64,000 nt of DNA from Escherichia coli (GCF_048403405.1 NZ_CP183129.1), one strand, 5' to 3'; shown: positions 42,185-47,302, counted from the first letter of the stretch. The notes: generated from the letters alone by a model not told the origin. Numbers and translations: made by a program.

Positions 42185-42655
42185 ATGAAAACACAACGTG
42201 GTTATACGCTGATTGAAACGCTGGTCGCGATGCTGATTCTGGTCATGCTAAGCGCAAGTGGACTCTATGGCTGGCAATACTGGCAGCAGTCGCAACGGCT
42301 TTGGCAAACCGCCAGCCAGGCGCGGGACTATTTGCTCTATTTACGTGAAGATGCCAACTGGCATAACCGCGACCACAGTATCAGTCTTATCAGGGAGGGG
42401 ACGTTATGGTGCCTTGTGAGTTCCGCTGCTGGGGCCAATACCTGTCATGGCAGTTCACCATTGGTCTTTGTGCCACGCTGGCCCGAAGTCGAAATGAGCG
42501 ATCTGACACCTTCGCTTGCTTTCTTTGGCCTGCGCAATACCGCATGGGCCGGGCATATTCGCTTCAAAAACTCAACGGGCGAGTGGTGGCTGGTGGTTTC
42601 GCCGTGGGGAAGACTCCGGCTTTGTCAGCAAGGAGAAACAGAAGGATGCCTATAA
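42185..42655 (+). CDS. ppdA: Prepilin peptidase-dependent pseudopilin-like protein A
   Basis: 156 aa; N-terminal type IV prepilin signal ([18 protein letters not shown]). Confidence 0.8.
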
Positions 42656-43209
42656 AAGAGCAAGGTTTTTCTCTGCTGGAAGTGTTGATTGCTATGGCGA
42701 TCAGTAGCGTATTGTTGCTGGGGGCTGCACGCTTTCTGCCTGCGTTACAGCGTGACAGTTTAACGAGCACCCGTAAGCTGGCGCTGGAAGATGAAATCTG
42801 GCTGCGGGTATTTACCGTTGCGAAGCATCTCCAGAGGGCGGGTTATTGTCATGGCAGCTGTACCGGCGAAGGGCTGGAAATTGTCGGACAGGGTGACTGT
42901 GTCATTGTGCAGTGGGATGCGAACAGTAACGGTATCTGGGATCGCGAACCGGTAAAAGAGTCCGACCAGATTGGATTTCGTCTGAAGGAGCATGTGCTGG
43001 AAACGCTACGCGGTGCGACATCCTGTGAAGGTAAGGGCTGGGATAAAGTCACTAATCCGGATGCCATCATTATCGACACTTTTCAGGTTACCCGACAGGA
43101 GGTCAGCGGTTTCTCGCCGGTGTTGACGGTTAATATGCACGCTGCCAGCAAGGCTGATCCGCAAACCGTGGTGGATGCCAGCTATAGCGTGACAGGATCC
43201 AACCTGTGA
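42646..43209 (+). CDS. ppdB: Prepilin peptidase-dependent pseudopilin-like protein B
   Basis: 187 aa from ATG 42646 (AGGAG upstream); prepilin-type N-terminus ([16 protein letters not shown]). The ORF-track start at 42406 is an extension overlapping ppdA. Confidence 0.8.
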
Positions 43210-43933: not shown

Positions 43934-46900
43934 ATGTTAAGGGTCTACCATTCCAATCGTCTGGACGTGCTGGAAGCGTTGATGGAGTTTATCGTCGAAC
44001 GCGAACGGCTGGACGATCCTTTCGAACCAGAGATGATTCTGGTGCAAAGTACCGGTATGGCGCAGTGGCTGCAAATGACCCTGTCGCAAAAGTTTGGTAT
44101 TGCGGCAAACATTGATTTTCCGCTGCCAGCGAGCTTTATCTGGGATATGTTCGTCCGGGTGTTACCGGAAATCCCCAAAGAGAGCGCCTTTAACAAACAG
44201 AGCATGAGCTGGAAACTGATGACTCTGCTGCCGCAACTGTTGGAGCGCGAAGACTTTACCCTGTTGCGGCATTATCTGACTGACGATAGCGACAAGCGAA
44301 AACTGTTCCAGCTTTCTTCAAAAGCGGCGGACCTGTTTGACCAGTATCTGGTCTATCGTCCGGACTGGCTGGCACAGTGGGAAACAGGACATTTGGTTGA
44401 AGGGCTGGGAGAAGCACAGGCCTGGCAAGCGCCGTTGTGGAAGGCGTTGGTGGAATATACCGACGAACTCGGGCAACCGCGCTGGCACCGCGCCAATCTT
44501 TATCAGCGCTTTATCGAAACGCTGGAGTCCGCGACGACCTGCCCGCCGGGGTTACCTTCGCGCGTATTTATATGCGGTATTTCCGCGTTACCGCCTGTTT
44601 ATCTCCAGGCGCTACAGGCGCTGGGTAAACATATTGAAATCCATCTCCTGTTTACCAACCCCTGCCGTTATTACTGGGGCGACATTAAAGATCCTGCTTA
44701 TCTGGCGAAACTGCTGACTCGCCAGCGCCGACACAGTTTTGAAGATCGCGAATTACCGCTATTTCGCGACAGCGAAAATGCCGGACAGCTCTTTAACAGC
44801 GATGGTGAACAGGATGTCGGCAACCCGCTGCTGGCCTCATGGGGCAAGCTTGGGCGCGACTACATTTATCTCCTTTCTGATCTGGAGGGCAGCCAGGAGC
44901 TGGACGCCTTTGTCGATGTCACGCCAGATAACCTGCTGCATAACATTCAGTCTGACATTCTGGAACTTGAAAACTGCGCTGTTGCGGGTGTGAATATCGA
45001 AGAGTTTTCCCGTAGCGATAACAAACGCCTGCTTGATCCACTGGATAACAGTATCACCTTCCACGTTTGCCATAGCCCGCAGCGCGAAGTTGAAGTTTTA
45101 CACGATCGCCTGCTGGCTATGCTGGAGGAAGACCCGACATTGACTCCGCGCGACATCATCGTGATGGTGGCTGATATCGACAGCTACAGTCCGTTTATTC
45201 AGGCAGTGTTTGGTAGCGCACCTGCGGATCGTTACCTACCTTACGCCATTTCCGACCGTCGGGCGCGGCAGTCACATCCGGTACTGGAAGCGTTTATCAG
45301 CCTGTTATCACTGCCTGACAGTCGCTTTGTGTCAGAGGATGTGCTGGCGTTGCTGGATGTGCCGGTGCTGGCGGCGCGGTTTGACATCACCGAAGAAGGG
45401 CTGCGTTATTTACGCCAGTGGGTCAACGAATCCGGCATTCGTTGGGGGATAGATGACGACAACGTTCGCGAGCTGGAACTCCCCGCCACCGGACAACACA
45501 CCTGGCGATTTGGCCTGACGCGCATGTTGCTGGGCTACGCGATGGAGAGCGCGCAGGGCGAGTGGCAATCGGTTCTACCTTATGATGAATCGAGCGGCTT
45601 AATTGCAGAACTGGTGGGGCATCTGGCTTCACTGCTAATGCAGCTAAACATCTGGCGTCGCGGGCTGGCGCAGGAGCGTCCGCTGGAAGAGTGGTTGCCG
45701 GTTTGTCGCGATATGCTCAACGCCTTCTTCCTGCCGGATGCGGAAACCGAAGCGGCGATGACGCTGATCGAACAACAATGGCAGGCGATTATCGCCGAAG
45801 GTTTAGGTGCGCAGTATGGCGACGCGGTGCCGCTGTCACTATTGCGTGATGAACTGGCACAGCGCCTGGATCAGGAACGTATCAGCCAGCGTTTTCTCGC
45901 CGGACCGGTTAACATTTGTACTCTGATGCCAATGCGTTCCATCCCATTCAAAGTGGTTTGCCTGCTGGGAATGAACGACGGCGTTTATCCACGCCAGCTT
46001 GCGCCATTGGGCTTTGACCTGATGAGCCAGAAACCGAAGCGTGGCGACCGTAGCCGTCGCGATGACGACCGCTATCTGTTCCTGGAAGCGTTAATTTCCG
46101 CGCAGCAAAAACTCTATATCAGCTATATCGGGCGTTCTATTCAGGATAACAGTGAACGTTTCCCGTCGGTACTGGTGCAGGAACTGATCGACTACATCGG
46201 GCAAAGCCATTATCTACCGGGCGATGAAGCGCTCAACTGTGATGAAAGCGAGGCAAGGGTAAAAGCGCATCTTACTTGCCTCCATACCCGGATGCCGTTT
46301 GATCCGCAAAACTACCAGCCAGGCGAACGACAAAGCTATGCTCGTGAATGGCTACCTGCGGCCAGCCAGGCTGGTAAAGCACATTCTGAATTTGTTCAGC
46401 CGCTGCCGTTTACCTTACCGGAAACCGTGCCGCTGGAAACGCTACAACGATTCTGGGCGCATCCGGTGCGGGCGTTTTTCCAGATGCGCTTGCAGGTGAA
46501 CTTCCGTACCGAAGACAGCGAAATCCCCGACACCGAGCCATTTATTCTGGAAGGGCTTAGTCGTTATCAAATCAATCAGCAGTTATTGAATGCACTGGTT
46601 GAGCAGGATGATGCCGAACGCTTGTTCCGCCGCTTCCGGGCGGCAGGGGATTTACCGTATGGCGCTTTTGGTGAAATTTTCTGGGAAACACAGTGCCAGG
46701 AGATGCAGCAGCTTGCCGACAGAGTCATTGCCTGTCGCCAGCCGGGGCAAAGTATGGAAATTGATCTCGCCTGCAACGGTGTGCAGATAACTGGCTGGTT
46801 GCCGCAGGTGCAGCCGGATGGCCTGTTGCGCTGGCGTCCCTCTTTATTAAGTGTGGCGCAGGGAATGCAACTTTGGCTGGAACAACTTGTCTACTGTGCC

Positions 46901-47302
46901 AGCGGTGGTAATGGTGAAAGTCGCCTTTTTCTACGCAAAGACGGCGAGTGGCGTTTTCCGCCGCTTGCAGCCGAACAGGCTTTGCATTACCTCTCACAAC
47001 TGATTGAGGGGTATCGTGAAGGAATGTCCGCGCCATTGCTGGTGTTACCTGAAAGTGGCGGCGCGTGGCTAAAAACCTGTTATGACGCGCAAAACGATGC
47101 CATGCTGGATGACGATTCCACGTTACAAAAAGCCCGTACGAAATTCCTTCAGGCTTACGAAGGCAACATGATGGTGCGTGGCGAAGGTGATGATATCTGG
47201 TATCAACGGCTCTGGCGGCAATTAACACCAGAGACAATGGAGGCCATCGTTGAACAGTCGCAACGTTTCCTGTTACCGCTGTTTCGCTTTAATCAGTCAT
47301 GA
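43934..47302 (+). CDS. recC: Exodeoxyribonuclease V gamma subunit RecC
   Basis: 1122-aa uninterrupted ORF beginning MLRVYHSNRLDVLEALMEF. Confidence 0.95.
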   Translation: MLRVYHSNRLDVLEALMEFIVERERLDDPFEPEMILVQSTGMAQWLQMTLSQKFGIAANIDFPLPASFIWDMFVRVLPEIPKESAFNKQSMSWKLMTLLPQLLEREDFTLLRHYLTDDSDKRKLFQLSSKAADLFDQYLVYRPDWLAQWETGHLVEGLGEAQAWQAPLWKALVEYTDELGQPRWHRANLYQRFIETLESATTCPPGLPSRVFICGISALPPVYLQALQALGKHIEIHLLFTNPCRYYWGDIKDPAYLAKLLTRQRRHSFEDRELPLFRDSENAGQLFNSDGEQDVGNPLLASWGKLGRDYIYLLSDLEGSQELDAFVDVTPDNLLHNIQSDILELENCAVAGVNIEEFSRSDNKRLLDPLDNSITFHVCHSPQREVEVLHDRLLAMLEEDPTLTPRDIIVMVADIDSYSPFIQAVFGSAPADRYLPYAISDRRARQSHPVLEAFISLLSLPDSRFVSEDVLALLDVPVLAARFDITEEGLRYLRQWVNESGIRWGIDDDNVRELELPATGQHTWRFGLTRMLLGYAMESAQGEWQSVLPYDESSGLIAELVGHLASLLMQLNIWRRGLAQERPLEEWLPVCRDMLNAFFLPDAETEAAMTLIEQQWQAIIAEGLGAQYGDAVPLSLLRDELAQRLDQERISQRFLAGPVNICTLMPMRSIPFKVVCLLGMNDGVYPRQLAPLGFDLMSQKPKRGDRSRRDDDRYLFLEALISAQQKLYISYIGRSIQDNSERFPSVLVQELIDYIGQSHYLPGDEALNCDESEARVKAHLTCLHTRMPFDPQNYQPGERQSYAREWLPAASQAGKAHSEFVQPLPFTLPETVPLETLQRFWAHPVRAFFQMRLQVNFRTEDSEIPDTEPFILEGLSRYQINQQLLNALVEQDDAERLFRRFRAAGDLPYGAFGEIFWETQCQEMQQLADRVIACRQPGQSMEIDLACNGVQITGWLPQVQPDGLLRWRPSLLSVAQGMQLWLEQLVYCASGGNGESRLFLRKDGEWRFPPLAAEQALHYLSQLIEGYREGMSAPLLVLPESGGAWLKTCYDAQNDAMLDDDSTLQKARTKFLQAYEGNMMVRGEGDDIWYQRLWRQLTPETMEAIVEQSQRFLLPLFRFNQS

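Follow-up and report, generated by a model that had tools for sequence, protein, structure and literature searches.

The current analysis concerns positions 42185 to 47302 of a 64,000-nucleotide stretch of Escherichia coli DNA (GCF_048403405.1 NZ_CP183129.1; the whole stretch is referred to as the window), where four short genes encoding prepilin-like proteins, ppdA, ppdB, ygdB, and ppdC, lie immediately upstream of the recombination gene recC. One outcome is that recC appears to have its own weak sigma-70 extended -10 promoter embedded within codons 75 to 84 of ppdC. The locus itself is the known E. coli ppdA-ppdB-ygdB-ppdC operon located directly before recC, with a conserved and previously described layout, and the arrangement as it was first put forward was an ordinary and already known one, restating a catalogued operon and published synteny. 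An embedded promoter constrained at synonymous sites, together with its apparent relocation from the intergenic spacer, constitutes a modest addition to this operon. The best overall explanation, and one that we consider probable, is that of the known operon under Sxy/CRP-S control, with read-through into recC and an embedded recC promoter. The candidate promoter consists of two elements:

43820..43825, + strand: candidate -35 element CAGACA, nucleotide-invariant, within ppdC codons Q75-T76
43838..43848, + strand: candidate extended -10 element, TGTGT (43838-42) followed by CAGCAT (43843-48), within ppdC codons C81-V82-S83-I84

These elements are separated by a 17-nt spacer, include a TRTGn motif as well as A-11 and T-7, and are located ~85 nt before the recC ATG. 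The arrangement corresponds, albeit weakly, to a sigma-70 extended -10 promoter (-35-like element, 17±1 nt spacer, TRTGn, A-11, and T-7), and the predicted +1 would fall near 43855/43856, of which A43856 is invariant. The comparison drew upon species-representative genomes scanned with an alignment of the RecC N-terminus, which returned 80 Enterobacterales loci and no other taxonomic order. In an alignment of 35 sequences from the clade with a short ppdC-recC gap, ppdC exhibits ~68% nucleotide identity and contains the invariant blocks CAGACA and TGTGTCAGCATCA (43838-43850). The residues Q75, T76, C81, V82, S83, and I84 are encoded by an identical codon in 97-100% of the sequences, as compared to a median of 0.42 when conserved residues are taken across the operon, and for Q75-T76 the codon is identical wherever the residue is kept (100%). 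Of the nine near-invariant codons in the operon as a whole, six are found within these 30 nt, a degree of clustering that was matched in 0 of 20,000 permutations. Across the wider set of loci, the 13-mer of the extended -10 block is exact in 42 of 81, and 53 of 78 loci contain AGACA-N12-TGTGTCAGCAT.

Similar codon conservation could conceivably arise at the level of the protein or its translation alone, if the residues QT...CVSI required particular codons, for example for folding near a disulphide cysteine. C81 is indeed invariant in all families and pairs with a conserved C-terminal cysteine, and the QT and CVSI residues are themselves conserved in the short-gap clade. However, other fully conserved PpdC residues (G, F, S, E, L, R) keep their codon in only 6-86%, and the permutations speak against a chance gathering of six such codons. 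Furthermore, in the Yersiniaceae, Erwiniaceae, and Hafniaceae, whose ppdC-recC spacer is long, the cysteine alone is kept at the position of the block and the codons vary freely, indicating that the CVSI motif is dispensable for PpdC itself. Codon identity, permutations, and long-spacer families all point to a constraint on the DNA that is independent of the encoded protein, and we consider an origin purely at the protein or translation level to be highly improbable.

The length of the ppdC-recC gap offers a second line of evidence for the embedded promoter. This gap is 12 nt in 33 loci and 7 nt in 9, and it reaches 70-200 nt in Yersinia, Serratia, Erwinia, Pantoea, Hafnia, and Rouxiella. A full TTGnnn-N16-TAnAnT motif occurs in nine of the long spacers and TA[ACG]AGT in 17, which makes an intergenic recC promoter plausible in these families; there, a TTGCAA-N16-TAnAGT motif would stand in for the embedded block. 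When the loci are sorted by element, 53 contain only the block, 17 contain only the intergenic TA[ACG]AGT, none contain both, and eight contain neither. Signals for a downstream gene that are written into upstream codons constrain synonymous sites, and this is also the pattern observed at 43820-43850. A nearby example is the recB ribosome-binding site, which sits within ptrA (PMC12342828). Unlike other in-gene regulatory signals, the element in ppdC is inferred from comparative data alone, and its distinctive quality is the apparent shift from the spacer (Yersiniaceae, Erwiniaceae, and Hafniaceae) into coding sequence (Enterobacteriaceae). Two Serratia spacers (L055 1810-2013 and L057 5816-6000) contain a palindromic element resembling repetitive extragenic palindromes (ccctctccctgtgggagagggttagggtgaggg). 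As these spacers are accompanied by neither the embedded block nor the TAnAGT motif, the recC promoter of these Serratia species must be located elsewhere.

Several observations weigh against an embedded recC promoter. Firstly, the match itself is weak, with four of six positions at the -35 and three of six at the -10, and it falls under the threshold of a consensus scan. For GACA-N12-TRTG-N-NANNNT, 0.22 chance occurrences are expected in the window, and thus a match in a single genome proves nothing. Secondly, the eight loci lacking both elements and three further loci that combine the block with a long gap depart from a simple exchange of one promoter for the other. The contrast between block and intergenic motif also reflects few evolutionary transitions, as it is essentially one between the Enterobacteriaceae and three sister families, and the Fisher p-values for this contrast are not valid probabilities. 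Thirdly, the invariance extends slightly beyond what a -10 element needs (GGA at 43835-37 and CA at 43849-50), which would also fit a protein-binding site. Lastly, no entry for recC, ppdC, or ppdA exists in the supplements of Conway 2014, SMRT-Cappable-seq 2018, or Kim 2012. The recC promoter, the ppdA promoter, and the leaderless start described below are all inferences. A published CRISPR interference guide labelled 'recC promoter' maps to 43857-43875, although its paper gives no basis for the label.

The excess of invariant bases raises the question of whether the CAGACA...TGTGTCAGCATCA block is a regulator site or an RNA element, such as a processing site or the target of a small RNA or protein, that tunes recC and is not a core promoter. 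In support of this, the 13-16 contiguous invariant bases and the 6-mer located 12 nt upstream somewhat exceed the contacts of RNA polymerase, and parts of the block form the imperfect inverted repeat CAGACA-N14-TGTCAG. In addition, the neighboring ptrA-recB mRNA is subject to Hfq-dependent post-transcriptional control (PMC12342828). Conversely, the region yields no Rfam match, the predicted recC leader shows no folding beyond that of shuffled sequences (z = +0.83), and invariance instead of covariation speaks against a helix. The spacing likewise fits a -35 / 17 nt / TRTGn / -10 arrangement exactly, and in the families that keep a spacer the block is replaced by a plain promoter-like motif. 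Taken together, we judge a regulator site or RNA element to be unlikely and retain the embedded promoter as our preferred reading of the block. Two other readings of the block were rejected. An antisense open reading frame (ORF) starting in the invariant block varies in length from 12 to 99 codons among species, and a minus-strand promoter based on CTGACA (TGTCAG in reverse complement) has by inspection no acceptable -10 at 15-19 nt.

A separate rationale for a recC promoter derives from the expression of the two parts of the locus. Within the RecBCD field, recC is treated as constitutively expressed and as a separate operon (PMC12342828), whereas CRP-S genes are normally silent, being off in 72 of 72 ECOR strains tested (PMC3330819). 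It follows that recC would need a promoter besides that of ppdA. According to the embedded-promoter reading, the everyday low expression of recC would be independent of the ppdA promoter and would originate from the weak sigma-70 promoter with its +1 near 43855. The simpler alternative is a single operon in which the ppdA promoter alone drives recC, basal leakiness suffices, and the ppdC block is unrelated to transcription. Such an operon would be in agreement with the tight or overlapping gaps between the genes and with a consensus scan of the + strand that found no terminator or consensus sigma-70 promoter in 41800-47600. Because the same scan also missed the thyA terminator (see below), its negatives are weak evidence. 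Similarly, the genes are listed as one unit whose cistrons all have comparable mRNA half-lives (PMC3936743), and a cell requires fewer than 10 RecBCD molecules (PMC12342828). However, a single promoter that is effectively silent without Sxy is difficult to reconcile with constitutive recC, and it leaves unexplained both the synonymous-site invariance in ppdC and the conserved promoter-like motif in the ppdC-recC spacers of the sister families. For these reasons, transcription of recC from ppdA alone seems improbable to us.

Regardless of whether recC has its own promoter, the geometry of the operon leaves little between its genes. The features of the unit are as follows:

42185..42655, + strand: ppdA, minor pilin PpdA (= ComN in Pasteurellaceae); Pfam N_methyl 30.1 bits, NCBIfam PRK10506 equivalog 1.7e-74
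42646..43209, + strand: ppdB, minor pilin with weak GspJ/PilW-type matches; PRK10557 2e-98, gspJ 1.7e-4 (below cutoff)
43206..43613, + strand: ygdB, DUF2509 protein, small GspK/PilX-type minor pilin without Glu+5, GTG start
43598..43921, + strand: ppdC, minor pilin; Pfam T2SSppdC 8.6e-31, N_methyl 28.6 bits, NCBIfam PRK10332 3.2e-65
43924..43928, + strand: recC Shine-Dalgarno sequence AGGAG, with 2 nt separating it from the ppdC TAG stop and 5 nt from the ATG
43934..47302, + strand: recC, RecBCD gamma subunit, 1122 aa; Pfam RecC_N on homologues

Adjacent genes overlap by 10 nt (ppdA/ppdB), 4 nt (ppdB/ygdB, GTGA), and 16 nt (ygdB/ppdC), and a 12-nt gap separates the end of ppdC from the recC ATG. 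The range, the overlapping layout, the 12-nt gap, and the gene identities given in the sequence-only reading that preceded this work were exact to the base. At the ppdC-recC junction, TAGTCAGGAG is kept throughout the short-gap clade, and the two genes share a reading frame in the window with only TAG and 12 nt between them. An error-ridden 427-aa ENA metagenome protein containing both PpdC and RecC domains (P0006) was considered as a natural fusion or read-through product; it contains two frame changes at the junction and is an assembly or frameshift artefact. The unit lies on one strand throughout, and the junction has no intrinsic terminator and is too short for one. Consequently, any transcript begun at ppdA would run into recC. 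Transcripts from the ppdA promoter are predicted to continue into recC, which would be translated from its own Shine-Dalgarno sequence, and ppdAB-ygdB-ppdC-recC is listed as one polycistronic operon (PMC3936743). Co-transcription of the pilin genes with recC, as first proposed from the sequence, is supported by this catalogued unit and by the missing terminator, but it is only a partial picture given the evidence for a recC promoter. The same proposal had set an independent recC promoter combined with termination after ppdC against itself; comparative evidence now exists for the former, and no termination after ppdC was found. The net design would provide recC with two inputs, a constitutive embedded promoter and competence-induced read-through.

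The second promoter implied by this design would be that of ppdA, and the region upstream of the gene contains several candidate elements:

42018..42049, + strand: thyA intrinsic terminator, 11-bp stem, 6-nt loop, T8 run
42066..42081, + strand: distal CRP-S-like site TTCGAGACACCTTCCC, 6/10 to TGCGA-N6-TCGCA, centre ~-112 from the ppdA ATG
42089..42104, + strand: direct repeat TGCAAC-N4-TGCAAC, between both CRP-S-like sites
42117..42133, + strand: proximal CRP-S-like position, centre ~-60 from the ATG, degenerate in this strain (4-5/10)
42173..42178, + strand: -10-like hexamer CATACT, exactly 6 nt before the ppdA ATG, no Shine-Dalgarno sequence

The thyA terminator has a folding energy of -16.6 kcal/mol (z = -3.0), which 0 of 200 shuffled sequences equalled. 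It forms the upstream boundary of the unit and shields the ppd operon from thyA. The thyA-ppdA intergenic region of 184 nt is 56% identical in a footprint alignment of 35 Enterobacteriaceae sequences, among which the conserved columns include a TTCG and a TTCC box, the TGCAAC-N4-TGCAAC repeat, and an invariant CAnACT located 6 nt before the ATG. The repeat is among the few conserved columns and has no assignable motif match, although it might serve as the site of a co-regulator. We defined CRP-S sites as 22-bp CRP sites with a TGCGA-N6-TCGCA core located upstream of the operon. A scan of the window for such sites produced only weak and ambiguous matches, the best of them inside the thyA terminator, and the two positions emerged through their recurrence across loci. 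CRP-S-like 16-mers matching at least 7/10 are centred at ~-112 in 25 of 74 loci, and the one in Hafnia (L080) is a perfect TGCGAGCCATATCGCA. At the proximal position, 32 of 74 loci have a match of 7/10 or better with its centre between -59 and -61, such as TCCGATATGTGTCGCA in L039 and L050. The poor matches of the two sites in this strain must be counted against CRP-S control at these positions. In the window, only the CG of the right half is conserved at the proximal position. Concerning the start of ppdA, nAnnnT occurs at -12 to -7 from the ATG in 58 of 74 loci (CACACT in 21 and CATACT in 18), and a Shine-Dalgarno core precedes the ATG in 0 of 74. This suggests a leaderless ppdA mRNA with a putative start at A42185 of the AUG, in which case the proximal CRP-S site would be at a class I distance. 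Such a leaderless-type start may help to explain the difficult expression of these pilins. Altogether, the operon would normally be silent and would be switched on by CRP and Sxy through CRP-S-type sites located ~60 and ~112 bp before ppdA. This is consistent with the reported induction of the ppdA operon by Sxy and CRP, in which ppdA responds more strongly than any other gene (PMC12616744, citing Sinha 2009 and Jaskolska & Gerdes 2015).

The four products of the operon exhibit the features of minor pilins. We considered proteins pilin-like if a short basic leader ending in Gly precedes ~20 hydrophobic residues (Pfam N_methyl / TIGR02532). PpdA, PpdB, and PpdC score 30.1, 33.6, and 28.6 bits with N_methyl, relative to a cutoff of 21.2, and are above the cutoff of TIGR02532 as well. 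YgdB fails the N_methyl hidden Markov model, yet the leader-Gly-hydrophobic pattern is found in 71 of 71 orthologues. The Glu+5 of the mature protein is present in PpdA (YTLIE), PpdB (FSLLE), and PpdC (FSLPE) and missing from YgdB (VSSLA), as is usual among GspK/PilX-type members. The cluster of four pilin-like genes with one product lacking Glu+5 accordingly has the composition of an H-I-J-K-type set, and the proteins have the pilin fold of a long N-terminal helix on an antiparallel sheet, like solved minor pilins. A one-to-one orthology to GspH/I/J/K is not seen with the NCBIfam gspH, gspI, gspJ, and GspK models, which score 14-21 bits compared to cutoffs of 44-130. PpdC has only generic weak pilin matches below cutoff beyond its own families, and a PDB sequence search of the pilin proteins yielded nothing besides a weak match of PpdB to TTHA1219 (E = 0.06). 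The four proteins are functionally like an H-I-J-K set and stand outside those equivalog families. We take the name 'prepilin peptidase-dependent protein' to be annotation only, and cleavage and N-methylation by GspO/PppA to be predicted.

From the sequence, these genes had initially been considered cryptic pseudopilin genes, a description that did not hold up. Their ratios of nonsynonymous to synonymous substitution (dN/dS) of 0.06-0.20 indicate maintained genes and not decaying relics. PpdAB-YgdB-PpdC can replace PulHIJK in priming PulG pseudopilus assembly (PMC5131608, citing Cisneros 2012), the products serve as the minor-pilin module when E. coli type IV pilus systems are reconstituted (bioRxiv 10.1101/856302), and the genes are induced by Sxy (PMC12616744). 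The chromosomal type IVa pilus/DNA-uptake machinery (PpdD, HofBC, and HofMNOPQ) draws its four core minor pilins from this operon. The 10-, 4-, and 16-nt overlaps would couple the translation of the four pilins, which presumably act jointly as one priming complex at the pilus tip, a role known from the literature. Between the window (42646-43613) and another E. coli locus (L002 4713-5677), the synonymous divergence (dS) of ppdB and ygdB is 0.58-0.80, with values 2-3x lower in the flanking thyA, ppdC, and recC (0.17-0.39). This hints at old allelic lineages or possible recombination at the pilin genes.

When examining the distribution of the arrangement, a 5.4-kb query of the locus was found in 5425 of 5426 complete E. 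coli genomes, with 100% identity to strain TUM14771, whose gene order is thyA, ppdA, ppdB, ygdB, ppdC, recC, ptrA, recB, and recD. Homologues of ppdA and ppdB are located upstream of recC in 79 of the 80 Enterobacterales loci, and thyA is upstream in 76; the sole exception to the ppdA-ppdB...recC order is a symbiont contig beginning only 1 kb before recC. Identity across the loci is 23-96% for the pilin proteins, 84-100% for ThyA, and 65-99% for RecC. In four more distant recC loci, in which recC-recB-recD are contiguous, a SLAC1 transporter or other genes are found upstream and pilin genes are absent. The linkage between pilin genes and recC is lineage-restricted, being found in the Enterobacterales here and in the Pasteurellaceae per the literature only. 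A functional link had been described as not known in the sequence-only reading, but four prepilin genes adjoining recC in the Enterobacteriaceae and Pasteurellaceae were already noted in 2006, and the recC-adjacent position was used to call the E. coli genes orthologues of H. influenzae pulG-HI0941 (PMC1635313). A 2025 paper does the same for comNOPQ and ppdAB-ygdB-ppdC and makes a case for a functional relationship with transformation (PMC12616744). One locus in an IS630-ridden and apparently degrading genome (L084 4970-6023, GCA_001640365.1) has fragmented ORFs with DUF2509 and N_methyl before a split recC, and the ptrA after recC is also fragmented; the locus decays in place.

Among known systems, Haemophilus influenzae comNOPQ (HI0938-HI0941) offers close parallels, since it likewise comprises four small pilin-like genes in a CRP-S/Sxy operon of the same orientation directly upstream of recC. 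These genes are required for DNA uptake, and their orthology to ppdAB-ygdB-ppdC is positional (PMC1635313; PMC12616744). Despite this, sequence similarity between the two sets is undetectable by BLAST (PMC1635313), and H. influenzae is naturally transformable, whereas E. coli is not, even with Sxy induced (PMC3330819). The distinctions from GspH-GspI-GspJ-GspK of type II secretion systems (PulHIJK, XcpUVWX) are also clear: the NCBIfam GspH, GspJ, and GspK models are matched far below cutoffs, YgdB has 135 aa as compared to ~280-330 aa for GspK and is devoid of the large inserted GspK domain, and the ppd genes stand alone beside recC outside of any such secretion cluster. The core minor pilins of Pseudomonas aeruginosa (fimU-pilVWXY1E) present a further contrast, as the ppd cluster includes no equivalent of PilY1 or PilE, is regulated differently (Sxy/CRP-S in E. 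coli), and is located next to recC, an adjacency specific to the Enterobacterales and Pasteurellaceae.

Farther downstream in the window, recB is split into the ORFs 50350-51339 and 51150-53900 by a single-G deletion that shortens a G7 run to G6 (51252-51258), relative to the near-identical TUM14771. Unrelated strains share the G6 allele, which occurs with 100% identity in 42 of 5306 complete genomes. A homopolymer miscalled repeatedly during assembly would therefore be more likely than a true pseudogene, with slippage as the alternative.

Based upon the features described above, several consequences for the organism can be considered. RecBCD levels are tightly limited and recC expression is poorly documented, and an embedded promoter, if true, would provide a concrete and testable site of recC control. 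It would also explain the frozen island of synonymous sites in a fast-evolving pilin gene, and it would imply that RecBCD activity might be changed unintentionally wherever ppdC is deleted or recoded, for instance in synthetic pilus 'chassis' work or genome recoding. A bolder interpretation, which we find doubtful, is that the tight junction reflects an evolved two-input control of RecC, in which, in the Enterobacteriaceae, the spacer collapsed to ~12 nt, the housekeeping promoter was rewritten into ppdC codons whose synonymous sites were thereby frozen, and the disappearance of any terminator left RecC, alone among the RecBCD subunits, as a passenger of the Sxy/CRP-S competence regulon. If this were true, RecC dosage would rise together with the DNA-uptake pilus, there would be a real functional coupling of DNA uptake and the RecBCD processing of incoming DNA, and this coupling could account for the persistence of the adjacency in the Enterobacterales as well as the Pasteurellaceae.

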